Under the pieces are notes generated by a model. That model was not told where the DNA came from. It ran no database searches and saw only the letters and a program-made list of their open reading frames with translations. Shown here one piece after another: positions 4,501-26,977 of a stretch of 39,264 nt of DNA. A program made the position numbers and the translations under genes. Positions within the stretch are counted from its first letter, which is position 1. Each line of letters opens with the position of its first letter. Origin of the DNA: Stramenopiles sp. TOSAG23-6 (Eukaryota); the NCBI GenBank assembly GCA_900128565.1, contig LT635937.1, positions 1-39,264 on the forward strand. Reading direction: 5' to 3'.

Positions 4501-7500
4501 GGCGTGCACCAGATTTACCATGTATATCTGACAAAGAATGTGGTACACGAGGACCTTGCATGTCTGGTCAATGTTCCCTTGATCGACTACGTGGATGTGC
4601 AGTTGACTTAGATTGCGGGAATACAGGACCTTGTCTCACTGGCATTTGTAAAGAATCAACCGATATAGCTTGCCTCACGGATGGTGAATGTAATATCCCG
4701 AACAAAGAAGTTGGTGGTGTTGTAAAGACTGACATTGGTCCATGTGTAAGTGGGTGGTGCGAAAAAGATCAAACCATTGGCTGTGATTTGGATTCTCATT
4801 GTGGAGACTCGGGTCCTTGTTCTATATTGACTCGAGGTTTTATTCCAGCACTACAAAGAGCTATTAAAGCTTCAGAATTGAATCATAAAAATTCCATGAA
4901 AACTTTCCCTCATAGTAAATCAGCAAACATGACACGTATAGAAGCTACAAACGCTGTTGCAAATGCAATGCAAGAAAAATCGTTGCTTACGAAGAGAATG
5001 AGACCGGATCTTCAAGGTCCTGCAATGCAAGCATGTAATTTTCTTGGGATAGAAAGGTGTAAGGAAATGTTAGGTGCTGCATACAACAGTTCGCATGTTG
5101 ATGTGGTAACAGCATTCAAAGTTTTACGGTCTGGTGATGCCACATCAGCATGTCTGGGGTTTGGGTGGTATAAATGCACTGAGAGTTTAAAGGAGGCAAA
5201 AGATAGACAACACGAAGATGTTGTTTTAGCAATTAAAGAATTAACACATAGTAGCAAAAAATTAAAAGAAAGAATTTTACTATCTAAAGAAATGGTCGCC
5301 GATACTCGATTGCGTGATGTTGCTCGATTGCAACGTTTGAATGCCCCACAAAGTGATATCACCGAGGCATCTGTAAAAGCAGCAGTTGCTTTAGAAGAAT
5401 CATTGCGCTCAAATTTACAACTTCTTGGGGTCTCAGCATCAAGCACAAAAGCCTCGATATCACCTCCTGAAATAGTTGCAAAGGCACGAGAAAAACAGGC
5501 CAAGTCATTACTTAGGGATGGTAGCATTACCGAAAGACAATTTGAATATATGCGACGTGATATGCATGCGTGGCTTCTCAATGCAACACGAATCAGAAAC
5601 CCGCAAAATTACACTATCATAGAGTCTCCTGGTTTTGAAAATAACTATGCTGATGTCTTTAAAATAGATGCTGGTTCTGGAACTCGTTTTGGATTTAATG
5701 GTACTACTAACGAACGAGGTGGTCCGCTCAAAGCAATCGGCAACGGTCGGCCCGGTGAGAAACATGGTGGAAAAGACAACATAACAAATTCATTTCGTTT
5801 CCATGAGGATAGTATGAAGTTGAAACGACTATATCAATTAGAGCACTTGGAAATGGGTAGTCAAATGTGGCCAAACCGAACACCAATCGATAGTTATGGT
5901 CCGCCACTTTTCTTTTCCAACTCAACGGGAACACCATTAACACTAGACATGTGCAACGGCGAAAAAGAACAAACAGCTGATTGTTATTGTCGAGTGCTTG
6001 GACCAAAGTTATGTGGTGAAAGTCTATTCCTTGCATACTTACAAGGCCACTCGGAAGTTATAGCTGCCATCCGTTCCACTCTCCGGGGCAATTCTACATC
6101 AATGGCGCTGACAATGTGTCGTGCATTAGGACCAAATAGATGTCGCAAAACATTAGCAGAAGCTGTAAGAAGCAATGACATTGCTGTTGTGGCCGCCTGG
6201 AGATTTCTTGTAAATGGAACGCTAGCCTTCCCTGCAATGAATGTTCTTGGTAACACACTGGCGCCCAATCGATGTAATAATTACACGGACTGCTCTGATA
6301 TAACAACGTGTATTGGTGGTCGCTGTTTAGAGCCTCGTGGCTCGGAATGTATGTCTCATAATGATTGTGTACAAGGTCGAAAGTGTATTGAGAAACGATG
6401 TTTTGCTAAACAACCATGCACAAGAACTTCGATGTGTACTTTTGATGAGAGATGCATTGGCGGACATTGCGCTGAAATTACTCCAGGTGTTCCATGTGCT
6501 CGGCGAGAAGACTGCGGTTTTGCTCAAGAATGTCGTAATTGGAAATGCATGCGAGTTGCGAAGCTCTTATCTTGCAAACGATCAATTGATTGTGGTCATG
6601 GACAAACATGTGGCCTCTTTCAAACATGTATTCCACGTCCTCCCTGGGATTGTGCCTCAGATAATGATTGTCCGTTCAAGACGACTATGTGTAATGTTAC
6701 TGAGGGGAAATGTGTGCCTAAAACCCGCACTGTTACTACTGGTGGTGAGTGTACATCTCCTGCACAATGTACACTTCCCGGGCAAACGTGTAGATATGGA
6801 AAATGTATTATTGTTGCTGAAGGGGCCCCCTGTGTTTCTACTGAAGGTTGTGGAGCTGGTTTTGCTTGTGATTTATCCGGGGGTTCCCCGGGAACTTGTC
6901 GAGGTCCAATTAAGATTGGCAGTTTATGTACAGGCGGACCGGGTACGGGTTCGTGTGCAAGTGGCCAAGTTTGTCGTGACGGAGTTTGTGTACTCGCGCC
7001 TAGTGTGGGTTCTGCATGTAAAGGTCCGGAATGTGGCTCTGGTAAGATGTGCGTGGAAGGATTTTGTGTATATGCGCCAGTTTCTCTGGTAATTCCACCA
7101 TGTAAAAGTGTCCCAAATATTGATCATGGTGGAGTATTTGCCAATCCTGGTAAACGAAATGAAACCGAGAAAGACAGCTTTGATGAAAATAAATGCTCGG
7201 GTGTAATGCCAATGGGTTCGTGTACTTATAATTGTAAAGAAAATTTTGAAATCCCTCCAGGTATATCTAACATTACAAACTGTCGATTAAACTCAACATG
7301 GTCAGAAGAACCACCAAAATGTACTTCCGAATTTACTTGTGCCCCAAACAGAGCTCTTCTGAGAGAAGATACATGCAAAGCGAAAGGTATTTGCAGTTGT
7401 TCGTCTCCTGTTTTACCCGGAACAAAGAAGCCACCCAAAACGTTGGATTCTACGACATGTGTTAACTGTGAAGATGAAGGTACTGGAGATAAATGTACTT

Positions 7501-10500
7501 GGACCTCTGATAATGAATGGCTTCGTGGAAAGGGAAAGATGGCTCTATTTTGGGCAATTCAAGATAGAAATCGGAGAGGTGTCCAATTTCTTTTAGATTC
7601 TGGTGCAGATCCAAATATAAGATTAGGTATAGAAGGTTGTCTTGACCCAACAATGACTTTCAATACTACAGAGGAAAAAGAAACGTATAAAAAAGAAATT
7701 CTTGCATCTCCTTGGTGTGAAAGTGCATCTATGAAAAGAGCAGTTGATGTCGCTGATGAAGTAGGTCCTGAAAGAACAGCAAGCATCATTCGTTCTGCCG
7801 GTGGTATTCCTGGTAATGCTGAAATGGTGTATCCATTTAAATGGGAGTCAGTAGTGGAAGCATGGAATCGTACTGCTGATGAAAAAAACTTTGGTATCCA
7901 TGGACATCTTCAATTCTTACCTTGGTGGCAATGTACGAACAGAAATGATCGCAAACGAGGTAAAGTGGGTTGCTACCCACACGCATATGATTGGGGCGAT
8001 TATAATGATTTGGCTTGTGATCCTGACACAGGTCTTAATTGTGAATGTGACGAAGAAGAACCTCCTGATAGTCCTTATACATGCGAAGTTGGTCAAGATC
8101 CAGATACTGGTGGGAAAACTCGCATAAAGAAGGGAAAATTTAAAAAAGGAAAACATCGAGAAGGAACTAACAGAGAAAGGAAACCAAAAGGATTTAAAAG
8201 ACCAACTGGTGGGAAGATTGGTCAGCCAGGTGATTGTGATTGGAATCCATTTACAAATTTGCCTTATTTTCTGTTTTGTATTATATTGAAGGTTCTCAAA
8301 CCTTTATTTACAATGTCGATGTTAGAGACAGGAGCTTCTTCTAATCAGTTAATGCTACCATATCAACCCCCAGTAGTTTCTAATAGTAGTATATCAGTTC
8401 CTTTTTTTCAAACACCAATGGAGAAAAATGATGTATATAATTCGTATATTGATACACCCATGGTTATAACAGATATATACCCACTTGCAAATAATCATTT
8501 TGCAGACAATTTCAATTCGTATAATGGCAATAAAAGTCAAACAAAAGTTGGTTTCAACCCCGTACTGGTAAAATATCCAGTGGATTTTTCTAACACATGG
8601 AATACGCCCAACTTGACCAATGCATTGTTATCATCAGTCATTGTCATTGAGCCTGAACGGTTTTCAAATTTAATTAGTGTGCTAGAATATCGTAATCGTA
8701 CCAGGAAGGGCAATATTTTACAGTATCACTCATTCACAAATTTGAACATTACCGGAAACAAATCAGCAAATGTGAAATTGAACGATAAGAATATCGATAT
8801 CATCAGAACCAGTGGAATGGGAGCAATGCGAAAATTGCTGCATTTCAATACGAGGAGCACAAAAAGAAGACACCTGCGTGGTGCGTGGGGTGTCAATCCT
8901 TCTAGTGTATTGCCATTAGATGAAACCCTGAGAATTCAAAAGAATGATGAGTCTTCGCGATTTTCTGAATTAAGAAATGAGCAACTTCGAGAAAGCTGGA
9001 ATTCTGGTGCAGTTTCATCGATGGTGAGTGCCACAAGTAGTCGAAATGGTGGGTCAGGTAAATGTGCCAAAAGTAAAGCTACATGTTGGACTAATTTAGA
9101 TTGTCCTACAGGGGACACGTGCTCTAAGATAAATAAAAAAGAAGGTGCTGGTTTTCAAGATCAATCTTGGGATAAATCAGAGAAGGGCGTGGATGCAAAA
9201 GATGCCCTTCAGACGCAAATGGCAACCTCTTTAGAAAACTTTGGCGGTGATAAAAATAAAAGAGGTGGCGGTCGTCAGGATACTTCAGTAGGTGGAAGTA
9301 ACGCAATCAGTGAAAAGGGGAAAGCTAATAAGGGCGAATCCGATAAAAGTAGTAATGACAGTAGTTCAAGTTCAACCATTGCTACTACTCCTAGAACAAA
9401 TTGGAAATGGTCAGGAAAGGAAAACATGAATACACCGGGGATGTCAGATTTCTCGTTCTCTCCCATGGATCATGGCCGTGGTATATTTGTCTTTGGTGGA
9501 ATGCGACACGATTACGACAAATTCACAAGCGGTCAAAATGTCTATTTAGATGAAGCATGGTACTATCGTCTTGGTTGGAATGAGACTACTTCCGAAGTAA
9601 CATGGTATGGTCATTTTTGGTTACCAACAGCTCTTTTGGGAACTAAACCATCCCCTCGAGCAGGACACACTTCTGTTGTTGCAGCAGCATTAGGAAGTGG
9701 AGACAGTGAAATTTGTTTCGAGGACGTCGAACAAATTTCTGCCACAGCCAAACGACAAGCAAGTGACCCGCGCAATAAAGCTCTTGAAGAAGCAAAAGCA
9801 AAAGCCGCTACAATGGATGTGCATGATGAAAAATCGACAAAGAAAGAAGGCGAATGTGTTGCTAGAGTTCCATCAGATACATCTGAGTGCACGCCCATCG
9901 TAGACCTCGACGTATGCAAGGGTAACATTAAATGTAAAGTAAGTTCAGAAAGCTCGTCGTCGGCTCCAGTCGATCAAGCTGATATGTTTAGATTTGAAAA
10001 AAATACTTCTTCAGAAGCAGATGACACAAATGAAATTGAGGGAAACAACAGAGAAGATGAAGATGATGAAGATGATGGCGATGACGAACATCCGAAACCT
10101 TCATACAAGACAATATTAATATTTGGAGGATATAATGGAACTCATTTCTTCAACGATTTATATTCGGTTTTTCCAATTGAAGAGTCCAGTCAACAGTTAG
10201 CAAAACAAATGGATCGACTCAAAATGCCAAATGACACTGATATATTCAAAAAGCGAGCATCAACTTTTGACTACAAACATTTTTTGCAACACGAAGGTTT
10301 TAAACGATGCGTCGGGAAGTTTAATGATACTGATACGGGTAGTATAATCGAAGGGGCAGCTGAGTGGTGCCTCGGGTTCTTTGCTCTACCATGGGAAGGA
10401 GAGCCTTGGGTACGAACTTTAGGTGATCCAAAACGAAATGATTCCCGTGGGAATGAGTGGGCAGACAAACCTCGATTCCGAAAAGTCTTGCCATATTGCA

Positions 10501-13500
10501 TGGATACAAAACACCATAGAGAAAGAAATCCCAATACATTTCAATTTCGACAAAGGCGCACCCGAATTCGAAATAAGCAACCATGTATGCCAACATCTTA
10601 TAGAGGTTGTTATTTAGATTGCAAAAATGGCATGGAAGACAATAACCGTGCTTTACCGACTATGGCGGGAATAATGTCGAAACAAGAATGCGAAGACTCT
10701 GCCAAAAATTCATTCGCAAAATTTTATGGACTCCAAGGTCAAGATTTATCAAGCAATAATACAAGACGCGATCTAAGCCAGTGTTGGATAGGAAATTCAA
10801 CGTATGACACTATGGGGAAAAGCGACGACTGTAATATTTATGGTCTTCAAACAAGAATTGCATATGGTAAGAATTGTACAAATGCTGTATATGAGGTAGA
10901 AGTTAGAAGCACAAAAACCAGTGGAATATTTGAATGCAAAGGATGTGATGAATATGGAGGTCCAGGATTGATAAATTGTAAAGTAGACAAAATCACCGAC
11001 GCTGAGAAGGACATACACGAAACACTAACAAAACAATGTTTCGCAATGGATAATGCGAATATTCAACACAAAGATAATTGCGAAAAACATAAATCAATCG
11101 CAGAATGTGATACACAGTTAGAATGCACTACTGAAAAATGCAGTGCGAGCTCATTTATTGTGTCATATGTTACTAGCAATAATATTGCAAATTGTTCAGT
11201 AAAATATTGCAATGTGGAAGATGATCAGGGTGATGCTGAAAAGGCTCTTTCGTATGAAGTGTGTATGAGTATTTTTGACTGTCATGCATACTCTGAGGGA
11301 GCTACTTCGCCGAGATATGATAGTGGAAATTCACAATGGAGAAGGGGTTCTAAAAAACGTTCATTTTGCCATCCAATTGGTAACGCTTGCGTGGAGCGTG
11401 GTATTGGAGATGATATTATTGAAATATCTAGAGAGGTTTGTAATAGTCGGACACTTCCAGCTCCGAGATACCGACATGCATCTACTGTTATTGGACCTTA
11501 TATGATCATTCATGGAGGCATGGGGGCTACGGGTTTTTTGAATGATACAAGAATATTTGACACAAGGAATTCAACATGGTTAGCTGTATACCCGAGCGGG
11601 AATTCTATTCCACCTTCCCGTGCTGGACACTCAATGACAGGTATAGGTACACGTGTCATAATATTTGGCGGATATTCTGGGAGCGCTGGGTTATTTAACG
11701 ATGTATATGTCTTAGAAACTGGGTGCAAAAAAGTACCACCAAATGAAGGCGGGGGATTCAACTGCGGAGAGTGGCCCAACATGAAGTGGCGAAGCGTAAA
11801 GATTGATGGCCCACGCCCCTCAGCAAGGTTTGGACATCGCAGTGTATCTGCAATAGATTCCTCGATGATGCTTAGTGTAGGTGGCTATGGAGCAGGCTCG
11901 GATAATCAGGACTGGCGCAAGCGAAGGAATATGGAAGGTTTACGAAACGAAATGATACTACTTGATGTTTTAGTTCCTAATGTGACCAGTGTATTTCCTC
12001 GTCAAGGATCACCGTCGGGTTATCAAACTGATAATGTCACATGGTATAAGGGGAAACCATACATTAATGAAGTTATTGACTCGAGTGGCAATGTGCTCAT
12101 AAAAAAACACACTAAACTTGCTGGAAGATTGAAGATGCAAATTAGAGGTCGCAGTCTTGGCAATTGTCCGAAGCCATATGCCACAGTCAATGGGATCCAG
12201 AGATGCAATACTACGTGTACGGATGCTTCCTGCAATGAAAGCGTTTGGCACTCGAACAATAATAATGTTATGGTAACTATCGGGAAAAAGAAATGTGATC
12301 ACATTACTTGGTATAGTCCAAACTATATTGAGTGTGAAGTACCCCCGGGGGTTGGAAAACTTCTTAATGTAGTTGTCTGGGCATTTGGACAGTCAACTTC
12401 GACAGACCCACCGAATCGATTGTGGTCCTATGACCCACCCAAAATACTAGATATCTTACCATCTTTTGTGTTGGACTTTCCTGGTGTCCCGAGAGGTCCA
12501 CTAATTATACAAGGAAAGAATTTTGGTAGCCCAGAACTTGACAAAGATGAGTTAATGATGAAGCTGACTATAGGAGGACAAGCATGCTTGAAGTTCATAC
12601 ATGTGTCTGACACTACTATTATATGCCTATGCGTTGCTCGACGAGACAAAAATCAGCCTATAGGTAGCGAAGCAAAAGGTGGCATGACAGTATCTATTGG
12701 AGGACAAGAAGCGGTTGAAAAAAATAAACCGGCAATAATATCCGCACCAGTGAACTTTGCAAAATTAATGAAGAGGCAACTGAAGCGCAGAGGAAGTCTT
12801 GTAAGGTGCCCAGAAGCCGATGATATGGCTCGATTACTATTTACTCCCGGTATGGAAGCCATTCAGGATGACTTAAAATTGTTTCAAGAAGAATTCAAAG
12901 AAGACGCCGAAAATATTAGCTTTTCTGGAAGCCAGGATGCTTGTAGTGATGAGAGAAGTTCAACAAGAGACGATTGTTTATCGAAAGGTATTTGGGCAGA
13001 CGGTGGGTGTAATCCAGATCAATCAATCAAAACAAAGGAAGAATGTAAAACTAAGAGGAATTGGAAAGTTCAACCGGCAAAGTGTAGCGATGATACCAAA
13101 AAAAATAAAGCCGACTGTGAAAGTTCAGCATCTACGCCGATTACATGGGATTCTGAAACCAAAAGTTGCTCCGATAATAAGTCGGCAACAGAAGGAGAAT
13201 GTGCCGCGAGTCAAGCAGCTGCAGCAAATATTAAATGGATAGAAGAGTCCGAAAGTTGTAGTGACTCAAAATACTCCTCGAATAAAGCGAAATGTACGAA
13301 TGACCTTTGGACCAGTGCACATTGTTTAAATAAAGCCGGGGGTACATGCGAAGAACTACCATCTGGTGGATGTACGTTTTCATTTCAATTTCGAATTAGT
13401 TTTTTTTTTATAGTAAATTTTGTATCTAACAAAAATATCAAATTTTTGAAATAGTTTTTGACAGTACATGTACACCAAAGTACGAGCACTTGAGCTCAGC

Positions 13501-16500
13501 AGACTATAACTGTAAAAAACATGATTGCAATGGGAAGCTGATTTTTCAAGCTGAGCCATTCGATAATGTCACCTGTACAACAATCGGAGAATGGTATGTT
13601 GGGAGTACACAGGCAACGCTTAGAAAAATGGTTGCGAATACTATAGATGCCCAAACTGCAGAACGAAATGCAATAATTAAAGCGACAAATATCACACATA
13701 AGCCACTACTTGAAGCCTACGCTCGTAAAGTTGCCTTTGTACAGACTATGCTTGACGCAAAGATTTCTATCAAAGAAATTCACCGACGGATATTTGCTGG
13801 ACTAGAGAAGCTATCTTTGACAAATGATATCACTGCACGAAACTTTCTCGGTAATATGACTGCTCTAATACGAAAAGACATGAACATTGCTATAAATGCA
13901 ACAAATGTTGTTAATGAAAACAAGATGAAAACAGAGGAGTTGGAGAATGATTTCAGTGCAGCAAATAAAACATTTACTGACGCTAACGAAAAGGCTACTG
14001 TAGCTAAAGCCACATTTGAGAAAGTTCAAAATATAGAAAGAAAAGAAAGGTTAGACCGCTCACGCGTTTGTGCGCTAGAAAATAATCGTGAATTCGATGG
14101 CGAGAGTGCACAGTTTGACACAACAGATCCTTGTATTGTTGATTATTTAGAAAAACGGCGATTTGAGTTAAAAGAGGCTCGTGTTGATATGCTACAACTT
14201 ATCTCTGCAGCAAATGCTACACAAAGTGGGTATACGACAAAATTTTTTGCATTTAATAAATCCCGAAGTCTTCTTGACAAAGTAATACCGATTGCAAACA
14301 AGGCGAAGAGCGCATTGAATATGACTATCAGAACTGCAATAAAAAATATCACAAACGCTGTTACCGATATCAATAGTTTTAAAAATTCATTAACAAATAT
14401 GAGTGGGCGCAAAGAGCTTCTGAACAAGACAGCTGAACTAGGTAAAGATTTGAATAGAACAAGTTCTGTTATTAGCTTCTGGAACAATCTTCCAACTTTG
14501 TTGGATCGTGTATCTGGCGCAACAAATATTTCCAGAGGAGTTTTGCCAGATGACCTTGTGAATGGTTTCCATGACGCCGATTTTTACGACGTAAATAAAG
14601 ACTTGCGTGGTCTTTTAGATGCTGTCGGAAGCAAAGATGTAGTTGGCAACATTTTAATAGATTTACAGAAAAATTTAGACGTTATAAAAAGTAGAAATGC
14701 AACACTAGATGATGTCTTTAATGCATTAAAATCAAACATTTCAGAGAGTCTACATGGAAACATCGATGTAGAACACAATGGAATGAAAAAGATCACAAAA
14801 CTCGCAGGAATGGTATCACAATTGAGCATAATGAAAGCATCAATGGATGCCGCCTCAGCTACAAGATCAAAAGCACAGTCTTCCAATATCACGGATAGTC
14901 TTGTCAGAGAAGTTTCAAAGATGCAAAATTATTTTAATCAACAAGATATATTTAGTGGTGTAATCAAATCCCTCAAAGATGGCACAGCTTCTGCATCAGA
15001 TAAAGAAACAATAGAAACTTTACAGAAGACGATGAATATAGCTAAGGATAATGCAAATCTTAAAGTGGAGGATGAAACAAAATATTACCAGNATCTTCTG
15101 ATTTCTGATCTTGATGATGCATGCAGCGCATACAGGGATAAATATCAACAAGAAAATAGTGGAACACAGGATTCAATTTTATTAGTTGGCGAGCAGTGTA
15201 TTAAGCGCACTCTAGGCCCAGATAATTCATCGACAGAAACAATATTAGATGAAAAGTTGTGGCGGAAGCCCGTTGCAGATAAATCAATCAGTGAAACAGA
15301 AAACACAGATACTTCAAATAATGGGATAATCGGAAGCGTCGTAAAGTACATACAGCCAGATGGAACTGACGAAGGAAAACGGATCACTGCAAAAGTCATA
15401 GGGTTTGAAGACAATGAAGAAAAGTTAAAAGAATCATTTAGTAAGATGCCGTACTATGTCCTGAAACTAGGGGACAGTAAAGAAGTTCATACATTGAGAT
15501 CCCAGTTTTTCATAAAAGGAGAAGAAGGCTACGAAGATCCTGAAGCCGAATCTGAAGTAAGCCCCGAATCCATCGCAGATGCTGAAAATAGTAAAAGCGA
15601 CACGAATGTGTCAGAAGGGGCTAACTCAAATGAAGACGACGCTGGAAATAAATCGGGAGAAAATTCTGAGAATAGTTCAAATTTACTTCATTCTGGGAGT
15701 TCAGATACCGAAACTACAGAGAGAGACACAAATAGTGGAAGTAGAACAACCGAAGTTAAAGTTGGACCCGAAGATACTGAAGATATAATGTTTATTGAAA
15801 CAGGTATAGATACAGCAAATAAAATACATTTGCGTGGCTCTGTATCTACCGTATACTTACAAACGGAGAAGAGCGACACCCCTTCCAGATTTTCAAAGAC
15901 TCCTCCAAATTTGCATACATGGCATGTGTGGTTATCAAAACATAGCATGGGAATATTCAAAAATTTGAAAATTCAAGAAGCTAAACAATCTCAAAATGTA
16001 TTTAATAGTAATTATTCGTTTATCCCATCTGACTTTATGAATGTAAACCAACTTGAAGCACTCATTAAGGGCGATCGAAAGTTTCCTACGTCACGTAGAA
16101 GAATTCCAGAAAACACATTCGCTAATAGTAGTCGGTTCAAACATAATACAGGTACTTCAAATGCACCTATATGCAACTTAGTAATGGATCATGGAAAATC
16201 AATACAACAGATGCAACCCTGTCATTGCGATAAGTTGCAAAGTTTGGCAGATCTAAAAGGTAGTATTGGTATCGAAGATATCCCAGACGATTGTCTGGGT
16301 GATGTCAAACATTTCGCATACTCTCTTGCTTGTAAAAAAATGTGGAATGTATACATGGAAAGTTGTAGCCCAAAGCACATGCGATTGTATCGCACATCAG
16401 GAATACACGTAATCTATAACCAGTGCCACTTACTGAAATTTTCTACTGCTGCTGTGTGTGGAATTGTACCAGGCGAAGATTGGAAATCTCCATTTGTACC

Positions 16501-17191
16501 CAGTAATACTAAATCAGATGCAGAAAGTATGCGTTTTATGAGATCAAAGTTTAGTTGGCAAAGACCTGTTAGTGGAGCATTAGAAAGTAAACTAAAAGAA
16601 ATAGTCAGAAAACTGGAAAGAAGATCACAAGCACCAGCATCATTTATGAGACAGTGGTCAAAGTATGTGGCACATATACAAGACGATAATATTATAGAAT
16701 ACGATTTGTTTAGATTTAGACGAGCGTATGACATTGATGTACCATACGTGTCTGGAAAGACTTATCCAATGACATCTATTCAAATAGAAACTCCCCAAAC
16801 AATTGAGAAACAAATTGATATTGATATTGATTACGCTTTACATATGAGTAACAAGATGGCAAATATGCCGGTTAGTGCTCGATGGATACAACCAAATTTT
16901 CTCTGCTCAGTGGGAAAGCCAATGCTTCCACGCCGATCATTTGGCATAATGAAAGTAGGTATGGGAGACAAGTTTATCCTGTTTTTTGGAGAAGGAATCA
17001 ATGATGGACCTTTGTCAATGAAAGTTGGAGATAAATCATCAATAATGTCAAACAGTACATTTGGAATATTACCACTACCACCGAGAGATTTGAATGATAC
17101 ATTTATTCTGACGGACTTATACAAAGCTTCTGAAGATGAAAAACTCGGTTATGGATTACAGCTGATGTCATGCAATGGTCATCAACTATAG
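1533..17191 (+). CDS. Giant (~5,190 aa) secreted mosaic protein: signal peptide, ~20 four-Cys GxC-x7-C-x5-C..GPC repeats, ankyrin-like repeats, further Cys-rich repeats, Sushi/CCP, Kelch blades, WSC, two IPT/TIG domains, coiled coil; exons 1533-13371 and 13455-17191
   Basis: The first in-frame ATG at 1533 is followed by a hydrophobic leader (MNMFFVVLLLFCMNTSDS). The phase-1 intron 13372-13454 fuses the 3994-aa and 1233-aa ORFs (...LPSGG-F-FDSTCTPKYEHLSSADY...). Motifs: Sushi CKSVPNIDHG..CTYNC..WSEEPPKC (7101-7323); ankyrin ALFWAIQDRNRRGVQFLLDSGADPN (~7542); Kelch PSPRAGH/PAPRYRH/PPSRAGH/PSARFGH with IFGG; WSC YRGCY..RALP..C..FYGLQ..QCWIG..NAVY (10599-10898); IPT PNVTSVFPRQG..IECEVPPGVG..WSYDPPKI..IIQGKNFG (~11976-12720). 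Confidence 0.85.
2274..2400 (+). repeat. Coding 45-bp tandem repeat (about 2.8 copies; SVNRTPINDTKRLDN)
   Basis: TCTGTTAA(T/C)AGAA(C/A)TCCGATAAACG(A/G)CACAAAAAGGCTTGATAAT repeated near-identically; it encodes N-glycosylation sequons (NRT/NDT/NGT). Confidence 0.95.
13372..13454 (+). other. Spliceosomal intron (83 nt) in the giant gene
   Basis: GGAT|GTACGT donor, T-rich body, TATCTAAC branch point, TTGAAATAG| acceptor. Removing it restores a continuous frame between the two long ORFs and deletes an implausible AT-rich ORF tail. Confidence 0.92.
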
Positions 17192-17568
17192 TCGACGTCT
17201 ATAATGTAAAAAATGAAATGTTTATAGAAGAGAAATCTAGGCGAAAAAATTTCTTGTGTTGAGCCTTGTTGAATATTATATCGTTTATTATTATTCACCT
17301 GTACCAGATTAATCCTCCAAAATATGTAATACATATTTTCATTTTCATTGTTCATAAGGAGATCATAGGTGATTTCAATCGTCTAAAAGGAATCACTATC
17401 TACTGTCTAAAGCACCATTTTAAATATATATATAAAAGAGTTATTGAATTCTAGTAAATTTTTATTAAGTACTAGTTAGTGTTTGGTTAAAAGTCTGGGC
17501 CATCATTCGCATTAGATTTTGAGATCAGCTGCATAAATACGAATAACGCGCGCAGGAGACAGGCGACA

Positions 17569-17659
17569 TGCAGTACTAAGTATTGCTGATTGCTTGAATA
17601 TAGCGAACATCTGTAGATTCTGGATTGCATCAAAAAGAGATTAGTTTAGATAATGCACG
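17569..17659 (+). repeat. Direct repeat copy 1 (orphan copy of the RING-CH gene 5' region including ATGCACG)
   Basis: 17590-17659 is identical over 70 bp to 22051-22120. TGCAGTACTAAGT is shared just upstream, and CATCATTCGCATT is shared at 17501-17513 vs 22006-22018. Confidence 0.97.
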
Positions 17660-17740
17660 CGTGAATTAAGTATAGAAAGTATTTCATGTACTTTTTTATT
17701 GTACTTTTCATTTGACAAAATTTAATTTTGCATAACATCT

Positions 17741-20700
17741 TCAATCTACCGAGAATTTGATATACTTTGGAAAGGACTGTTTTTCTACCATCAGATTCAA
17801 CAAAGTCACAATTTTTGATGCACTCTCAGTTTTTTCTTCTTCTTCTCTCAAGACTCTAAAGCACAACATTTGAAATAGTTCGTCATTCCCGTATGTCCTA
17901 CCTATCCCAATTGGTGTGAACAAGTCACAGTTGACAATGTCCTTTTTATCAGGCTTACTCCAACAAAGTCCCATTTTTGTTGTCTGTATTACTTTACTGC
18001 ATTTTGGAATTCCTTGTGACATGTATATCCTGCGAGCAGCAATATTGCGAATTACATCCTCTGCTTCCTGAGCCATCATTTCCTTATCCAATTCAATACG
18101 TTCCCGACGTTCATCCTCATCTAAATCTTCATATGAAAAATCCAACTCTTGAGGGCGAGATTTGGATTGTTTCTCAGGAACAGCCACTTCATTATATGGA
18201 AGGCAAACATCATCTTTTCTTGGCATTTCACATGCAACCATTGCATATATTTTACGGCCCGGCAAGTATACATCTCTCACCATTAATGATATGTCAAAAT
18301 CTTCATTGTAATCGATACCACCCTTGACCAGTAGTGACGTCATTTTTTCGGCATCTGGTTCAGGTACTAATTCGGTCAATTCTTGTTGCAAGGCACTTAG
18401 ACTACTCAAATGCAGTGCTTCTCTTACATCTCGCTCTGCGGATCTGCTTGCATTTTGACATGCAGTATGAATTACATCTGCTTCCACTCTAACAACATCA
18501 CGCAATAAACCCCAAAATAACTCTTGGTTTGTGTCATGTGTAGCCTTTAGCATACTTAAATCCTCTTTTTTACACTTTAGTGACCAGTGTTTTGAGATCT
18601 GTAGAGAGGAATCAGTTCCATGCCCATTTATACTTACCATATCGAACATTACTTTTTGTGTCTTTAATTCACGCAATTTATTGATTATGTTGTTTATGCC
18701 ACCACCAATTAAAGTATAATTGAATTGATTTTTCTGTAAACATTCAACTTCATTTGTGAAGAGTCTGCTAAATACATTATTATGATCTGCTTCAGGTGTT
18801 GTATAAATGATCAGAACATTTTTGGCTGTTTCAGCATTTTTTGATTCATATTGCTCTTCCCCGCATTTAACATAACGAAAACTGTATGTTGGCAGACTTA
18901 AAGGCCTATAAAATTTAATCAGATGACATTCCTCACATTTTTCACACACATTACGAGCTCTGCAGCGATCTCCTTCTAAAGAATGAACTCTCTTCAAATT
19001 AATTTCTTCATGAGAATCTACACCATTCGGCAACTTAAAGAGTTGTTCATGTAAACGATGAACATATATTTGCAATGTACCGTTTTGAATCTTATCATAT
19101 AATCCTCTTGGGACTTCTCCGCCAATTGGATTTGGATTATGGAGGAAACCAAAAAAAGGGTCAAAGTCTGTACGCATTTTGAATTCTTTCAATGCATGCA
19201 TCTTCCCCATAGTCTCTGGTATCTGACCTTGAAGCCGATTATCATTCAAGTCCAGAATTTTCAGATTATCGAGATTGCCTAAACTTTCAGGTATTTCACA
19301 TCGAAAGTCTTGGTTTATTCTTAAAACTTCAAGATTAAGAAGTGTACCAATTTCAGATGGAATAACCCCATACAAAAGTTCATTATTAGCAATGGATATT
19401 TTCACAAGACTCTTCATTGCACCAATAGACTTTGGTATTTCACCTGTAAACTTTGTGTTTTCCACCAATAACTCTGTAAAATCAACATTGAACTGATCAA
19501 TATCTGGAAATTTGCCCTCGAAATCTGGACCTCGAAGGTGTAAAACTAAAGGTCTCTTATGAGAGACTATTCGTGCCACTTTTCGGATTACTAAAAAATT
19601 GTTGTCTACATGCCCACAAAATTTCTCCAATTCGTTCATGGATTCTTTCTCCAATTCATACAATGGCTTCAATTCAGATTGCTTCAATTCATTAATGGAA
19701 TCTTCATCCAATTCATAAAATGGAGAAAGATCCTTTAATGTTTGAAATGCCTTAATTTTAACATTCTGAATGTCTTCAATGCACTCACCAAGGCCAATCA
19801 TTTTCAAATACTCTTTAATTTTTGCAAATTCAGACTCTGTGCTCTGATATAGTATTTCAAATTCTAGAAGCTCGCGTACTTCTGCACGAGGATAATCTAG
19901 CTCATACCAGCGGTAATCTTTACCAACAATTCTTTCTGGTTCTGGACCATAAAAATGGTTGTGTGAGATAACAAAACTTTCTAGTGCGTTGTGCTGAAGT
20001 GCGGTGGGTGGTAATGTTCCTGACATATTATTATGACTGATATCTAGAACTTCCAATTTTATAGGGAGTGTATTTGGAAATTTTCCTGTGATCTGATTAT
20101 GTGATAAGTTAAGTAGTTCCAAGCTTTTCATATGTAGACCAAATTCTGGCAATTTTCCTCTTAATTTATTGTTTGATAATCTCAACAACGTCATTTTGTC
20201 ATGTTCTAGAAGTCTTTTCCATGGTATCAATCCTGTCAAATTATTACCTCCAAGGTCAAGACGTTCTAAATTTTGCAAAAAAAAGCTAGGAATTGATCCA
20301 GATAGTTTTCTGCCGTATCTGTTGCATAAGGAAATTGATTTCAGTGCTGTGAAAGCTCTGAAGATTTCTTGTGGTAAAATCCCAGAAACATCATCCGAAG
20401 TCAAAGTCACAATTAATTTCTTCCTTGGAAGTTCATAGAAGTTCCATCTATTGGATAAAGTTCCAACGATCTTCAGAGTGCCATAACTATAATTTACTTC
20501 CACTCTTTGAAGTAGACTCCTAAGTCTCTTTTTCTCAGCACTTTCAGCCTCCATAACCTCCCTCCAATTGGTATCACCCTTTCTTTCGGGGATTGTTATT
20601 GCGTTTTCCCTAATAGGCTCACTGTATGCCATTAGTTCAAGTTCTTCTAATTTTTCTAGATTACCTATACCAGATGGAATCACATCACCACTGATTTTGT

Positions 20701-21589
20701 TAAAAGCCAGGTCAAGTTTTTCCAGTTGTGTGAGTTTCTGAAATCCCTCTGGATAACGACCATTAATATTAGTATGAGCAATTCGTAAGTCTTTTAGGTT
20801 TGTCAGAGTCGTTATACCTTCAGGTATTTCTCCACTTAGTTTGTTACCAGTCAACTTGAGAACAGTTAGTTTCTGTAATTCACTGATTGTTGACGGTATA
20901 TGCCCTGAAAGTTCGTTGAATGACAAATCAAGATGCTCCAGATTTGAAAGTTTAGAGACTTCAGGTATTTCTCCGCTTAGCTTGTTGTGTGACAAACTAA
21001 GATACTTCAGATTTGAAAGTTTAAAGACTTCAGGTGGAATTGCTCCAATAAGGGGACAATCTCTGCCAACAAGAAGTACTATTATATCCGTCAAAAATCC
21101 AATTGAAGCTGGGATTTTCACTGGGATTTGTTTTCTGTTCATATATTCGTTGCATATGTAGAAACGAGGTGTTTTGTGTATGTATGCCGTTGCGACGTTT
21201 ACATTTATTCTCATTTCGTAAAATTTCACGGAGTCTTTGTTGTAGTCTATTTCGCATACCACTCCAAATTCTTCATCTGATAATCTGTTCAATTTCCTTA
21301 AATAGTTCCCCCATAGAGTAGTAGTAGTATCAGCATCTCCAAGAAGCTTGCTTCTGTCACATGATTTTAAACCTTCTAAACCAAACTTTTGCTTGAATTC
21401 ATTGCTTAATCTACCCTTTCCATTGAATTCCTCAGGAACCATTCTTTTCGATGGTTCTTTCGCTTCTTGCACTGGTTCACCTGGTTCACTGGGTACTCTG
21501 GGTTGAAGTGTTGTTCCAGCAACATCGCCTCCTTGAGCACATTCCAAGGATAGCACAAAGACGATTAACAGTGGTAGTAAACGTGACAT
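17741..21589 (-). CDS. Signal-peptide-bearing plant-type LRR protein with a C-terminal caspase-hemoglobinase-fold (DUF4347-like) putative cysteine peptidase domain
   Basis: Leader MSRLLPLLIVFVLSLECAQG (ATG at 21589). Many LxxLxLSxNxLSGxIP repeats in three blocks. The C-terminal domain has NVLIIYTTPEADHNNVF, MVSINGHGTDSSLQI and ADVIHTACQNA (His-Gly and Cys each following a hydrophobic strand). Single exon, no transmembrane helix seen. Confidence 0.85.
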   Translation of the reverse strand: MSRLLPLLIVFVLSLECAQGGDVAGTTLQPRVPSEPGEPVQEAKEPSKRMVPEEFNGKGRLSNEFKQKFGLEGLKSCDRSKLLGDADTTTTLWGNYLRKLNRLSDEEFGVVCEIDYNKDSVKFYEMRINVNVATAYIHKTPRFYICNEYMNRKQIPVKIPASIGFLTDIIVLLVGRDCPLIGAIPPEVFKLSNLKYLSLSHNKLSGEIPEVSKLSNLEHLDLSFNELSGHIPSTISELQKLTVLKLTGNKLSGEIPEGITTLTNLKDLRIAHTNINGRYPEGFQKLTQLEKLDLAFNKISGDVIPSGIGNLEKLEELELMAYSEPIRENAITIPERKGDTNWREVMEAESAEKKRLRSLLQRVEVNYSYGTLKIVGTLSNRWNFYELPRKKLIVTLTSDDVSGILPQEIFRAFTALKSISLCNRYGRKLSGSIPSFFLQNLERLDLGGNNLTGLIPWKRLLEHDKMTLLRLSNNKLRGKLPEFGLHMKSLELLNLSHNQITGKFPNTLPIKLEVLDISHNNMSGTLPPTALQHNALESFVISHNHFYGPEPERIVGKDYRWYELDYPRAEVRELLEFEILYQSTESEFAKIKEYLKMIGLGECIEDIQNVKIKAFQTLKDLSPFYELDEDSINELKQSELKPLYELEKESMNELEKFCGHVDNNFLVIRKVARIVSHKRPLVLHLRGPDFEGKFPDIDQFNVDFTELLVENTKFTGEIPKSIGAMKSLVKISIANNELLYGVIPSEIGTLLNLEVLRINQDFRCEIPESLGNLDNLKILDLNDNRLQGQIPETMGKMHALKEFKMRTDFDPFFGFLHNPNPIGGEVPRGLYDKIQNGTLQIYVHRLHEQLFKLPNGVDSHEEINLKRVHSLEGDRCRARNVCEKCEECHLIKFYRPLSLPTYSFRYVKCGEEQYESKNAETAKNVLIIYTTPEADHNNVFSRLFTNEVECLQKNQFNYTLIGGGINNIINKLRELKTQKVMFDMVSINGHGTDSSLQISKHWSLKCKKEDLSMLKATHDTNQELFWGLLRDVVRVEADVIHTACQNASRSAERDVREALHLSSLSALQQELTELVPEPDAEKMTSLLVKGGIDYNEDFDISLMVRDVYLPGRKIYAMVACEMPRKDDVCLPYNEVAVPEKQSKSRPQELDFSYEDLDEDERRERIELDKEMMAQEAEDVIRNIAARRIYMSQGIPKCSKVIQTTKMGLCWSKPDKKDIVNCDLFTPIGIGRTYGNDELFQMLCFRVLREEEEKTESASKIVTLLNLMVEKQSFPKYIKFSVD

Positions 21590-21892
21590 TATCAAATTGT
21601 TAATGCGATAGTAATATTATTTGTCTTTTTGCTAGTTCTTGTTGTACACTTAAAATACAGAATATCCGTTATTGAATAAGATTGAATACGTCTATCACCA
21701 AGGCTAACAAATGCGAACAAATGAAGAAAGGTAAAATGGATTTGAAATGCAGCTTTTGGACTGTTCTTCTTTTATGTATATTGGTATGAGAATAATTTGT
21801 TTTTATACAAAGAGTGATGTGATATACTTTTAATGCGTATCTAATTGTAAAGAGATATTTACTAGTAGGTAAAGAGAAAACAGAATAATCCC

Positions 21893-21935
21893 CCGGATTG
21901 ACGAAAATCACCGGATCGACGAAAATCACCGGATT
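21893..21935 (+). repeat. 18-bp tandem repeat CCGGAT(T/C)GACGAAAATCA (~2.4 copies) in the LRR/RING divergent intergenic region
   Basis: CCGGATTGACGAAAATCA CCGGATCGACGAAAATCA CCGGATT, read directly. Confidence 0.9.
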
Positions 21936-22030
21936 CTCTCTACCTACTTAAGCTAATAGTATAACACGAAATCGAGGTTTTTTATTGAAAGACGAAATGG
22001 GCAATCATCATTCGCATTTCAAATGGACTT

Positions 22031-22120
22031 TGCAGTACTAAGTCTTGCGCTTGCTTGAATATAGCGAACATCTGTAGATTCTGGATTGCATCAAAAAGAG
22101 ATTAGTTTAGATAATGCACG
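22031..22120 (+). repeat. Direct repeat copy 2 (5' region and start codon of the RING-CH gene)
   Basis: Matches 17569-17659 and contains the ATG at 22114. Confidence 0.97.
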
Positions 22121-23163
22121 AAGTGCTTTTTGAGCGATATTTTCGCCAATACTTCACAAAGTTTCGTCAAGATGGCATAGATCCTGCTGATGCTGCTGCT
22201 CTTGCTATTCGCGTCAGTAGACAAAGAATCACGAACGAATTTACAGCAAAAAAAGAACATAAACTTGAACCCACTGTAGAAAATATTGAAGTACCTTCGG
22301 AAGTGACAGAAGCGAAATCTGATATAGATAATGAAATATCCCCTCCTGTTACAACTCAGCAAACGGTTGATGAAATCGATGATGATAGGGTAAGAATATG
22401 TAGAATTTGTTTTGGATTTTCTAATGAAGACGGGCTTGGCAAAGTTATCCGGCCTTGTCATTGCAAAGGTTCAATTCAATACATACATATAGAGTGTTTG
22501 AATGCATGGCGCCGTTCATCAAGTAACCCGAGAAGTTATCATGAGTGTGAACAATGCGGCTACAAATATCGTATTCATAGGACTTCTTTAGCTCTTTTCC
22601 TGTTGAAACCTGAAACTCCTATAATATTAACAATTTTAGTAATCGCGTTGGCTGCGTTTTTTATAGGATGCCTTTTTTGCTTGTTATCCCCATGGCATAT
22701 ACCACAACGTTTGTATCATTTATGCTTTTTTAATCCACCATGGAGACATTGGCATTTTGTGACAGAAAATAGCTTCTTCAGTGGTATGGTTTTAGTTTTT
22801 ATTATTTGGTTGAAAAGTACTATTGCTGTGTGTTTAGATATGTTTGCTGTTGGAGCAGCTTCTCTAGGATTTATAGGATTTGTACTAGTCGTTAGAAGAG
22901 AAACTCTTCGTCATTGGGGAACTAATGAGGGGAGGCGGCATTTATTTATGAGTGGCTTGTGGCTTTCATCTTTAAACAGTAGATGGTCCAGATTTGCTTT
23001 AGGTATAGGTTTAGTGTACGCATATTCTTATCTGTTTCAGCAAAGTACTGTGATTTGTAAGGACAAAGCACAAAAGTGGGGCGAGAGATTACTCCAAATT
23101 GACGAGGATCATTTTGAAGATAGTTCGGTACCTCCTACTGATATTAATAATAAAGAAGATTAA
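22114..23163 (+). CDS. MARCH-type RING-CH (RINGv) membrane E3 ubiquitin ligase
   Basis: CRICFG..VIRPCHCKGSIQYIHIECLNAW..CEQCGYKY (C4HC3), followed by several hydrophobic segments. Confidence 0.93.
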   Translation: MHEVLFERYFRQYFTKFRQDGIDPADAAALAIRVSRQRITNEFTAKKEHKLEPTVENIEVPSEVTEAKSDIDNEISPPVTTQQTVDEIDDDRVRICRICFGFSNEDGLGKVIRPCHCKGSIQYIHIECLNAWRRSSSNPRSYHECEQCGYKYRIHRTSLALFLLKPETPIILTILVIALAAFFIGCLFCLLSPWHIPQRLYHLCFFNPPWRHWHFVTENSFFSGMVLVFIIWLKSTIAVCLDMFAVGAASLGFIGFVLVVRRETLRHWGTNEGRRHLFMSGLWLSSLNSRWSRFALGIGLVYAYSYLFQQSTVICKDKAQKWGERLLQIDEDHFEDSSVPPTDINNKED

Positions 23164-24094: not shown

Positions 24095-26977
24095 ATGCCC
24101 CCCACTGGAGCAATTGAGTGCAGAACATCAAATGTTCGTAAAAATAAGAAACGCAAACGAACAAAGAAGAAAAAGAAAAGGGCAGCAATAGTTAGTGAAG
24201 CTGTACTTAAGTCAGATGTGAAGGTTGCTGCGGCGCTGAATTTGCTTCCAGCGAGTGTTAAAGACACCCAGGAAGTGATACCCCTCCATACTGAACTCAT
24301 CACGTCTATTACATCTAGTAAAAGTAAAAGACGTAAACGTACAAAAAAAACAAAGCTTGGTATTGGTAGTTCTACTGTAAGTGGAGTGTGTTTCGCTTTT
24401 CAAAAGGGTAATTGCAAGCGAGGGGATACATGTTTGTTTTCTCATGAGAGTGGTGAAGTTGGTTTATGTAAACAACTTATTCAAGGAAAGTGTCGTCGTG
24501 GAAATGATTGTCCATTTAGTCACGACATTTCAATGGAAAATAGCAAAGAAAAGTTGTCTTATTCAAAGACGTGTAGTATAGAGTGTTTGGATGGACTTTT
24601 ATCACTATCAGAATCGGAAAACTCCTGGGTCAAACACAACTTACCAACTGCTGGGTCTATGCCATCCAAAACTGTTAAAGCGATTATTACTGCCGCAATT
24701 TCGAGTGCAGCACCAGCAAAAACAATCAATATTATTTCTTCCTCTAAAAAGAATGCTAATCGTATTACTGAAAATAGTTTAAAGAATAGTATGAAAAATA
24801 GTATAAAAAATAGTACAAAGAGTATTGCCGAAGCACAGTTTAAAACAAGAAAAAAATGTACAAATGATAGTATAGCCCCAATTAAAGATACTATGAAATT
24901 TAAAGTTATCAGAGAAGGATTTCAGCATGGTGCTCGTTCTCGACCTGTCAGGCCTACAGTTGAACTTCCACGAATAGATTGGACTTCTGAGAATCTTTCG
25001 TTTCTTCGAAAAGATTTTTATGAGGAGCATAAAGAAGTGTCCTCTTTCACAGAAGCTGATGTGTTGAATTATCGCACAGCAAAAGGTATTACAGTTCATG
25101 GTAATAATGTACCAAATCCTATAACGAAGTTTTCACATGCTTGTTTTCCAGATGCAATTGTCAATCGACTTAATATGGCAATGTTTAGAGAGCCAACCCC
25201 GATTCAAGCCCAGGCATTACCTGTAGTACTTAGTGGATCTGACATGGTTGGTATTGCACAAACCGGTTCTGGTAAGACATGTGCATTTATTCTTCCTGCA
25301 TTAGTCCATTTAGAAGCTGTGACTGATGCGGATGCAACAAAACGTGGCGATGGCCCCATATGTCTTGTGATAGCTCCTACGAGAGAATTAGCATGTCAGA
25401 CGCATACGGAAGCATTGCGTTTTGGAGGAGAAGATTTGAAAGTTTCGTTAATTTATGGAGGAACATCAAAATATCCACAAATGGATGCATGTGCAGCTGG
25501 TGTAGATATAATTGTTGCCACACCTGGACGTTTACTGGACTTTTTATTGAAGGGTTATACTAACTTACGTCGCTGTTCCTATTTAGTTCTAGATGAGGCT
25601 GATCGTATGCTGGACATGGGATTTGAACCTGATGTTCGTGAAATTGTCAGTCAAATCCGTCCTGACCGTCAAATGCTGATGTTTTCTGCAACATGGCCTG
25701 AAGATGTTCGCGAGCTTGCTCATGATTTACGTTCACAATCAAATTTGAATACACCAAGTGAGTGTATACAGGTAAATATTGGTGCAGCGGACGGAGGGCT
25801 TCATTGTAATCATCGTGTCGGGCAACAATTTCGTTTCCCTGGTGATGACCAACAAAAAGATAAACTTCTAGACAAAGATCTTGATGATCTTTTAGCTGGT
25901 CGTTGGGAAAAATACGTTATTTCCGCAGCTGGTGATGCTCCTTCTGATGGTGCATTTGAAGGTGTTGTTAAGAGTGATGTAGGTATTGGATATTCAAATG
26001 ATACGCGTGTGCTTATTTTTGTATCCCGTAAAGATCGCGCAGCTCAATTAGCAAAACGCCTATCGAATGGTGAAACTCTTTCCGGTAGAAGAATATTAGC
26101 TGGAGCAATTCATGGTGATTTATCTCAGTCTGAAAGAACATCCTCACTGTCTGGTTTACGATCGGGTAAATTGCAAGTACTAGTCGCAACTGATGTTGCT
26201 GCTAGAGGACTAGATGTGGATGGACTTCGATTTGTTATAAATTATGATTTTCCTCATACGTGTGAAGACTATGTACATCGTATTGGACGTACCGCGCGCG
26301 CAGGTAAAGCTGGAGTAGCAATGACATATTTCACTGGAAAAGATGCCCGACAAAGCCGAGAACTTGTTGAGCTTTTGACGGAAGCAGACCAAAAAATTCC
26401 AAAGCAACTTGCATCATTTGCAAAACAACCTGTATCTCAAACAAGTAGAGAAAGGTATATTGATTTCTTACATTCAAAACACGAAAAGCGCACCAGAAAC
26501 TGCGTAGGTAGAGGATTAGGTCGTGGTAGAGGATTTGGACGTGGTAGAGGATTAGGTCGTGGTAGAGGATTAGGTCGTGGTAGAGGATTTGGACGTGGTA
26601 GAGGATTTGGACGTGGTAGAGGATTAGGTCGAGGAATGACCAAAGATTCAGCAAAACCAATACGTGTTTGGACAGAAGAACGCCCTGACTTTCGAAAACG
26701 GGGCCAAGGATTTACAAATGCAAAAGGAAAAAGACTCGGGAAAAAAGAACGTCTTGCACAGAAAGCTCTTATAGCTGCTGGTGGCTCAGCATATCCTGTG
26801 AAAGCTACCTTTTCTGCACCAGTAGTTGGAAGTAATTGGTCTAAGATGCAGAGTGCAATAAGTGCTGGCACAGGGCGTGGGAAAGGTCCTGGAGGTCAAG
26901 GGGCAGGGAATAAGATGGGACCCGTGGCATCTATGGCGATCAAAAAGTTTACAGGAAAAAAAATCACATTTGAATAA
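24095..26977 (+). CDS. DDX5/DBP2-like DEAD-box RNA helicase with two N-terminal CCCH zinc fingers and a GRG-repeat tail
   Basis: KDFYEEH, PTPIQ, AQTGSGKT, PTRELA, TPGRL, DEAD, SAT, TDVAARGLD, YVHRIGRTARAG; CFAFQKGNCKRGDTCLFSH and CKQLIQGKCRRGNDCPFSH. First in-frame ATG at 24095. Confidence 0.92.
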   Translation: MPPTGAIECRTSNVRKNKKRKRTKKKKKRAAIVSEAVLKSDVKVAAALNLLPASVKDTQEVIPLHTELITSITSSKSKRRKRTKKTKLGIGSSTVSGVCFAFQKGNCKRGDTCLFSHESGEVGLCKQLIQGKCRRGNDCPFSHDISMENSKEKLSYSKTCSIECLDGLLSLSESENSWVKHNLPTAGSMPSKTVKAIITAAISSAAPAKTINIISSSKKNANRITENSLKNSMKNSIKNSTKSIAEAQFKTRKKCTNDSIAPIKDTMKFKVIREGFQHGARSRPVRPTVELPRIDWTSENLSFLRKDFYEEHKEVSSFTEADVLNYRTAKGITVHGNNVPNPITKFSHACFPDAIVNRLNMAMFREPTPIQAQALPVVLSGSDMVGIAQTGSGKTCAFILPALVHLEAVTDADATKRGDGPICLVIAPTRELACQTHTEALRFGGEDLKVSLIYGGTSKYPQMDACAAGVDIIVATPGRLLDFLLKGYTNLRRCSYLVLDEADRMLDMGFEPDVREIVSQIRPDRQMLMFSATWPEDVRELAHDLRSQSNLNTPSECIQVNIGAADGGLHCNHRVGQQFRFPGDDQQKDKLLDKDLDDLLAGRWEKYVISAAGDAPSDGAFEGVVKSDVGIGYSNDTRVLIFVSRKDRAAQLAKRLSNGETLSGRRILAGAIHGDLSQSERTSSLSGLRSGKLQVLVATDVAARGLDVDGLRFVINYDFPHTCEDYVHRIGRTARAGKAGVAMTYFTGKDARQSRELVELLTEADQKIPKQLASFAKQPVSQTSRERYIDFLHSKHEKRTRNCVGRGLGRGRGFGRGRGLGRGRGLGRGRGFGRGRGFGRGRGLGRGMTKDSAKPIRVWTEERPDFRKRGQGFTNAKGKRLGKKERLAQKALIAAGGSAYPVKATFSAPVVGSNWSKMQSAISAGTGRGKGPGGQGAGNKMGPVASMAIKKFTGKKITFE
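26507..26632 (+). repeat. Coding 18-bp tandem repeat x7 (GRG[L/F]GR)
   Basis: Two unit variants, GGTAGAGGATTAGGTCG(T/A) and GGTAGAGGATTTGGACGT, in the order L-F-L-L-F-F-L. Confidence 0.97.

Follow-up and report, generated by a model that had tools for sequence, protein, structure and literature searches.

The LRR gene and the duplicated RINGv start region

The 39,264-nucleotide contig LT635937.1 of Stramenopiles sp. TOSAG23-6 (assembly GCA_900128565.1), called the window below, is gene-dense and has a GC content of 38%. Near its middle a gene encoding a leucine-rich repeat (LRR) protein lies antisense to a neighbouring RINGv (RING-CH) membrane protein gene, and this LRR gene is bracketed by two direct copies of the RINGv start region. 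The features of the resulting cassette and of its two neighbours are as follows.

13628..17191, plus strand: upstream host gene, an open reading frame (ORF) of 1187 amino acids with no Pfam family
17496..17659, plus strand: left copy of the RINGv start region, with conserved blocks (17496-17513 and 17569-17581), a 55-base spacer and the 70-bp core
17590..17659, plus strand: 70-bp perfect repeat, left copy
17651..17668, no strand: palindrome with its exact centre at the left junction; pairing at 8 of 9 arm positions, the inner 4 perfect
17660..17740, minus strand: 3' flank of the LRR gene
17741..21589, minus strand: LRR gene, 1282 amino acids, a single uninterrupted ORF
18185..18826, minus strand: putative caspase-clan cysteine-protease domain, amino acids 922-1135, with Asp-His 935-936, His990-Gly991 and Cys1044
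21614..21950, minus strand: LRR promoter module, single in the host assembly, with diverged copies piling up in seawater runs
21900..21934, plus strand: 17-bp tandem duplication
21998..22120, plus strand: right copy of the RINGv start region, with a 12-base spacer; supplies the RINGv ATG
22051..22120, plus strand: 70-bp perfect repeat, right copy
22114..23163, plus strand: RINGv membrane protein gene, 349 amino acids, intact (PF12906, E 1.6e-11)

The genome searched was the host's own assembly (21 Mb in 6236 contigs), which is incomplete, and the counts given for these searches are lower bounds. Labels such as C27 and C68 denote contigs of this assembly, and labels such as L004 and L043 stretches taken from it.

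The initial annotation had recognized a perfect identity of 70 bp (17590-17659 = 22051-22120, direct, spacing 4461) prolonged by shorter upstream blocks, and both were recovered at the same positions. Two 13-bp blocks are shared upstream of the core (17569-17581 = 22031-22043 and 17501-17513 = 22006-22018), and the outermost of them scored above 500 of 500 shuffled sequences. The core and its nearby upstream match form 91 columns at 96.7% identity (E ~7e-36), with three differences between the copies immediately upstream of the perfect part. No homology was found upstream of the outermost block, where 403/500 and 211/500 shuffles scored equally well; in total the homology extends over about 165 bases in the left copy (17496-17659) and over 123 in the right one (21998-22120). 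The spacer between the 13-bp blocks, which had been overlooked, measures 55 bases in the left copy versus 12 in the right one, with unrelated sequences, and a third version of 18 bases was present in the right copy of seawater run X5. The core is not a dispersed high-copy repeat, a concern raised at the outset: two copies were found in the host assembly, both at the cassette. The presence of CGCG was tried as a marker of native promoters and discarded, as it occurs in 10 of 47 upstream regions, at 1.28 per kb versus 1.06 per kb in coding sequence, and does not discriminate.

Both copies stop 4 bases past the RINGv ATG, at ATGCACG as had been noted, and the left-copy ATG opens no ORF, reading three codons and then a stop. 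The RINGv ORF is intact behind the upstream copy that precedes it, in agreement with the proposal that the host gene kept its promoter; its ATG is a predicted start, the first in frame, and an orthologue search gave one distant match only. The left copy would be the native promoter of the empty allele. That a single recent event produced the two copies, as the initial annotation had it, is doubtful, because near-identity is confined to 70 to 91 bases and the remainder of the ~165-base homology has diverged strongly; had one recent duplication decayed evenly, it would not have kept 70 bases intact next to such sequence. Beyond the core the copies resemble divergent variants of each other. To judge from the alignment, these outer parts may be old versions, and the core may be a tract of recent crossover or conversion, or else a leader under constraint.

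A score as high as that of the palindrome at the left junction is found for a fraction of 2.3e-4 of the window positions and for 285 of 374,680 positions in the controls, palindromes having been examined post hoc at a handful of junctions. The central 8-mer of this palindrome is present a single time in the window and a single time in 376 kb of control sequence. Snap-back end joining leaves inverted repeats at junctions, according to the available part of PMC5728401, and the palindrome may be a break-repair signature of this kind; a natural palindrome in the donor, providing microhomology, would give an identical appearance.

The insert is 4.4 kb long and contains one long ORF, with matches to LRR families only; it holds no other mobile element and no Rfam match. 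The initial annotation had seen no transposase and no terminal inverted repeats, and neither an integrase nor terminal inverted repeats were found here. No long terminal inverted repeat was detected at the cassette ends among the 25 longest of 35 inverted pairs, nor any terminal inverted repeat between the two intergenic regions, where the longest inverted exact match is 9 bases. Tyrosine recombinase (PF00589) gave no match in the incomplete host assembly. A cut-and-paste DNA transposon or Pack element was rejected, as there are no terminal inverted repeats with a short target duplication, and so was a retrocopy, as there is no poly(A) in 17660-17740 and about 400 bp of 5' flank lie inside the unit.

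The LRR protein consists of a hydrophobic N-terminus that is likely a signal peptide, three plant-type LRR blocks and a C-terminal orphan domain, with no clear membrane anchor. The initial annotation had called it a protease. In support of this name, the C-terminal domain (amino acids 922-1135) has two paralogues in the host assembly, on C68 and C2441, and 3/3 sequences keep the His-Gly and the later Cys; a feature search of the Atlas returned clusters of DUF4347 and of Peptidase_C80 with scores of 0.82-0.88, to be taken as leads only. We take these two families to belong to the caspase clan, with His-Gly following one strand and Cys a later strand. Unlike them, the window domain has no Pfam match at E up to 1 and no PDB sequence match, stands behind a signal peptide and LRRs, and has no detected relative outside the host, the search having returned the protein itself only, under a label containing MAST3, which would stand for the marine stramenopile group MAST-3. 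Folding gave pLDDT 34.5 from the single sequence and 43.7 from a five-row alignment. In the low-confidence model strands end at His-Gly and at Cys, and its best structural matches (Z 6.0) are unrelated alpha/beta folds, with no caspase-clan chain among the matches listed. The conserved motif and the weak feature matches stand, and the fold, Pfam and PDB searches brought no confirmation; we consider a caspase-clan protease more likely than not. The cassette probably encodes a secreted recogniser of the LRR type, joined to a putative cysteine protease; the architecture and variability of this protein suggest a role in recognition or defence. Both paralogues (L039 2847-6657 on C68 and L004 3-1621 on C2441) are apparently split by introns, and the one on C68 has an LRR ORF directly upstream and a hydrophobic tail at its end.

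Seawater variants and other LRR loci

Besides the organism's own runs, the listed runs that contain window words are from seawater; RNA runs X7 to X13 contain a small share of these words, which is no evidence of expression. Runs X3 to X6 were compared through their contigs, with 32 of 93 records, 40 of 85 differences and 18 of 38 loose ends listed; X3, X5 and X6 come from a single study and X4 from another sample. Bins left uncovered in a run (for example 22062-22382 in X3) are no proof either way.

The LRR gene differed from the window at 54/2992 bases in X3, 21/696 in X5 and 7/354 in X6, and the flanks at 10/4257, 3/1770 and 6/2346, respectively; the X6 flank count leaves out a mostly intergenic record with 4/362, with which it becomes 10/2708. 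The LRR gene is about 8 to 18 times more variable than its flanks in these three runs. The divergent LRR contigs could be alleles or close paralogues. Among the differences listed, 23 of 26 alter the protein in the LRR gene versus 5 of 9 in the flanking genes. Positive selection on the LRR gene was not retained as an explanation, 23/26 not being clearly above a rough neutral expectation of about 3/4.

In the promoter module of the LRR gene, contigs of X3, X5 and X6 match the window from 21614 upward and diverge below, and on the minus strand an alternative ATG forms exactly at this breakpoint, 25 bases upstream of the LRR ATG; this alternative start is listed in two variants, which are distinguished by two third-codon positions. 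At 21652, 8 contigs add up to a depth of 96, versus 7-10 on the flanks; depth is not copy number. No second copy of the module was found in the host assembly, the alternative start is absent from it, and viral contigs gave 0 for both probes. Since the module is single and the alternative start absent in the assembly, the same promoter type fronts another gene somewhere; this gene may occupy the same slot, lie elsewhere or belong to a sister species. One match to the module, on C391 with 3 mismatches, lies between convergent genes and was judged a chance match. The 17- to 18-bp tandem motif within the module is found at three places (window 21900-21934, C111:820-839 and C2005:4639-4658) and is possibly a promoter element.

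Two contigs bear on the junctions themselves. Record 22 of X5 starts exactly at 22051 and continues unbroken into RINGv, a weak hint of two upstream versions feeding one exit, as would be seen if an empty allele existed; poor coverage of the other exit accounts for this start as well. A contig of X4 (17630-17985, 0 differences) joins the repeat tail to the 3' end of the LRR gene, with 30 letters on the repeat side, one under the 31-letter bridging rule, and its start would be a branch point of the 31-mer graph. No listed run record spans the whole cassette.

The N-terminal part of the LRR protein gave 159 matches in the host assembly, from which 40 stretches were taken and 5 near-identical duplicates dropped, leaving 35. 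They were compared with 38 control stretches of 9.9 kb, with repeated introns masked and gene families unmatched. Direct repeats of 75-162 bp bracket 2 of the 35 other LRR stretches versus 0 of the 38 controls (Fisher p 0.23 per stretch, 0.009-0.027 per ORF); many LRR stretches end near the gene, which makes two a lower bound. The initial annotation had suggested looking for paralogues of the LRR-protease gene flanked by duplications of their own neighbours: the C68 paralogue has no bracketing repeat, and the two bracketed loci are other LRR genes. On C27, a 162-bp repeat with 91% identity surrounds one LRR gene, with a GPI-transamidase gene downstream. On C1969 (L070 503-3128), the repeat is 75 bp long (97% identity) and represents the 5' coding region of a permease-family gene; between its copies lie an LRR gene and an Mpo1-like gene, and the LRR gene is head to head with the intact permease, as LRR and RINGv are in the window. 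C1969 was counted although both repeat copies overlap ORFs, a filter criterion that drops such pairs. Set aside were, in the controls, an array in L095 and a repeat within one ORF in L094, and, at other loci, the intron-family repeats of C79 and C1220 (masked), the 21-26-bp repeats of C59 (under the length cut-off) and the tandem LRR duplicates of C28. The three bracketing repeats (window, C27 and C1969; 70-162 bp) show no match to each other.

Non-coding flanks are common to an unlinked LRR gene in 10 of the 35 LRR stretches, some at 71-75%. No pair of controls had such a common flank; a 69% match of one LRR stretch to L095 was discounted as a repeat of coding type. On C27 a promoter-like module stands on both sides of the LRR gene (L043 4642-6602), and it recurs on C147 (L125 744-1072) before a small membrane-protein ORF; on C365 an LRR gene is preceded by a 5' flank related to this C27/C147 module. 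The match between the C27 LRR promoter and C147 is of 87% over 290 bases and ends at the LRR ATG.

Several observations concern the rest of the window. Positions 1533-17191 hold a 3973-amino-acid Cys-rich kelch/IPT protein, then 173 bp, then the 1187-amino-acid orphan ORF; the end of the first ORF reads like an intron, and the two may be one gene. Two DEAD-box-like helicase ORFs with CCCH-type fingers lie within 8 kb (24095-26977, from Pfam, and 34571-36664, by eye), and a 59-bp tandem duplication (34465-34582) is located between the calmodulin-like and DEAD-box-like ORFs. The CDC20 gene (32222-33724) has a paralogue on C75 (L113 3380-4781) with 71% DNA identity. Repeated-intron motifs gave 1 match in the 39-kb window versus 0-17 per other stretch, intron density being very uneven between contigs. 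The sole N of the window is at position 15092.

Origin of the cassette

The reading that we favour, with a probability of about 0.55, is an insertion with long target duplication produced by ordinary break repair, without transposase or integrase. The empty chromosome would have carried the upstream gene, a left-type promoter and RINGv, and would have been broken just past the RINGv ATG. By folding back, or through microhomology of about 9 bases, the broken end would have switched template to the 3' flank of an LRR gene; repair synthesis would then have run through this gene, its promoter and a diverged, older form of the RINGv promoter, before rejoining to RINGv through the common 70 bases. 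The donor would most likely be another haplotype, one where the LRR gene and RINGv already stood head to head. A linear template switch and a small circle that integrates through a single crossover within the 70 bases would yield identical products. As only events that spare the promoter and ATG of the neighbour survive, the position where the repeat ends would be explained. The diverged upstream copies, the third spacer of X5, the bracketing of two other LRR loci and, weakly, the start of X5 record 22 support an insertion, as do the lack of a tyrosine recombinase match in the incomplete assembly and the sharing of non-coding flanks in 10 of 35 LRR stretches, the mark of DNA-level dispersal used in the available part of Woodhouse et al. 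(2010, PMC2869330).

Several results weigh against this insertion. The search for an empty allele, advised in the initial annotation, gave no joint 17659-22121 among the listed contig records of the four runs X3-X6, and metagenome contigs gave 0 matches to a 26-nt repeat probe and 85 pattern matches to the RINGv protein with 0 confirmed; the weak hint of X5 record 22 stands beside these negatives. No DNA-level donor copy of the LRR gene was found in the host assembly. The GC3 of the LRR gene (0.296) is inside the host range (0.23-0.33), so that this gene is not a newcomer to the genome, and a foreign origin by composition was dropped as unsupported. Counted per stretch, the excess of bracketed LRR loci falls short of significance (p 0.23). 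The C27 repeat is also present on C147 and C4181, so that it belongs to a dispersed promoter and need not derive from the target. Finally, the palindrome was looked for after the fact, and the junctions of C27 and C1969 have none. Insertion with long target duplication, as first put forward, keeps the repeat, the intact RINGv, the repair signature and the LRR variability in its favour, and lacks the empty allele.

Alternatively, no gene moved: the LRR gene would be an old resident, and the left copy a piece of the RINGv promoter that was pasted in or left over, as a templated repair patch or as the relic of a tandem duplication. The lack of a donor copy, the host-like composition and the absence of an empty joint agree with this, and the 75-base coding duplicate of C1969, which has no upstream homology by eye, resembles a pasted patch. 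A patch taken from the right copy would not, however, carry an unrelated 55-base spacer between conserved blocks, X5 gives a hint of a left-type entry into RINGv, and host LRR genes disperse together with their flanks; we consider a resident gene unlikely.

Less likely again is a dedicated, transposase-free cassette system, in which dispersed promoter modules ending at a start codon would swap cargo (LRR genes and others) at fixed, polymorphic slots beside housekeeping genes, the flanking repeats serving for excision and re-insertion. This would account for the promoter homology that ends at 21614 in X3, X5 and X6 with an ATG at the breakpoint, for the two variants differing at two third-codon positions, for the depth of 96 at 21652 and for the C27-C147 match (87%, 290 bases) ending at the LRR ATG. 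However, conserved promoters before fast-changing N-termini would give the same picture, the module is single in the host assembly, the alternative start was not found there or in viral contigs, the three bracketing repeats are mutually unrelated and no recombinase was found. If such a system existed, secreted LRR recognisers, some with a caspase-like protease of an undescribed family, would be exchanged in polymorphic slots, and the duplicated neighbour promoter would permit gain, loss and amplification in wild populations.

An artefact had to be considered, as the host assembly contains perfect multi-kb inverted duplications typical of amplified DNA (C27, which is L043/L044; L095, L096 and L110), which are probably amplification chimeras; of such chimeras over 85% are inverted (available part of PMC1855051). 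Two haplotypes or a chimera stitched through the 70-bp repeat would fit with the fold-back junction, which is also a chimera signature, and with the lack of a record spanning the cassette, but we regard this as the least probable origin: the repeat of the cassette is direct, the sequence upstream differs between the copies, the X4 contig joins repeat tail and LRR 3' end without difference in another sample, and 0.99 and 0.98 of the words sampled are present in X1 and X2, respectively, though these are possibly the source runs.

Related systems and significance

Insertion with long target duplication was reportedly first described in H. pylori, by Nobusato et al. in 2000. In the available part of Furuta et al. 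(2010, PMC2853133), restriction-modification genes are inserted in this manner, and these cases resemble the window in an insert shorter than 20 kb, a unique direct repeat of more than 30 bp over the end of a neighbouring gene, the absence of any other mobile element and a conflict-type cargo. The window differs from them in being eukaryotic, in an LRR cargo without nuclease, in its diverged outer blocks and in its junction palindrome. Three of the four criteria for long target duplication are found here (repeat longer than 30 bp, not dispersed, insert shorter than 20 kb); the fourth is the empty allele, which defines the cases of PMC2853133 and of which X5 record 22 gives a weak hint here.

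In Arabidopsis, the available part of PMC2869330 places LRR genes among the mobile classes; the flanking repeats listed there mostly consist of 30-290 bp of host sequence and often correspond to the target site, non-coding flanks are shared between dispersed copies, and integration of a circle is proposed. The window comes instead from a stramenopile-like protist, its repeat is the promoter and ATG of the neighbour, and no parent copy of its LRR gene was found in the incomplete assembly. An unlinked parent of the type defined in that part of the paper (more than 75% identity over 50 non-coding bases) was not found there either; diverged promoter copies are present in the runs.

Snap-back synthesis-dependent microhomology-mediated end joining, as far as described in the available part of PMC5728401, leaves inverted repeats at repair junctions as in the window; those events are small indels at engineered cuts, whereas the window has a 4-kb insert and a palindrome without a loop between its arms. 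The LRR families of Tetrahymena (available part of PMC6564038) form, like those of the host, a large and fast-changing protist repertoire, but there 90-bp exons are shuffled in connection with a retrotransposon, in contrast to the uninterrupted ORF bracketed by the neighbour's promoter in the window. In the literature searched, which covered few subscription journals, no protist case of such an insertion was found, and the Arabidopsis paper was the only one on transposed genes with flanking direct repeats.

The insertion pattern, described as unusual in the initial annotation, is thus already known, from the available parts of PMC2853133 and PMC2869330. The locus is a protist case of the footprint of bacterial restriction genes and transposed Arabidopsis genes, and a new class of mobile element is not supported on present evidence. 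New here are the palindrome of the left junction, the divergence of the copies beyond their 70-bp core, the variability of the LRR gene with a promoter that also fronts another start codon, and the bracketing of 2 of 35 other LRR stretches.

In conclusion, a footprint of bacterial restriction genes and plant defence genes is extended to an uncultured marine protist. To the understanding of a poorly explained process the locus contributes a fold-back signature at one of the junctions and indications that the second copy derives from a diverged haplotype. Its cargo is a candidate recognition-plus-protease protein with no relatives detected elsewhere and high variation in the wild, and the locus lends itself to a simple test of the gain and loss of such genes in a single population.

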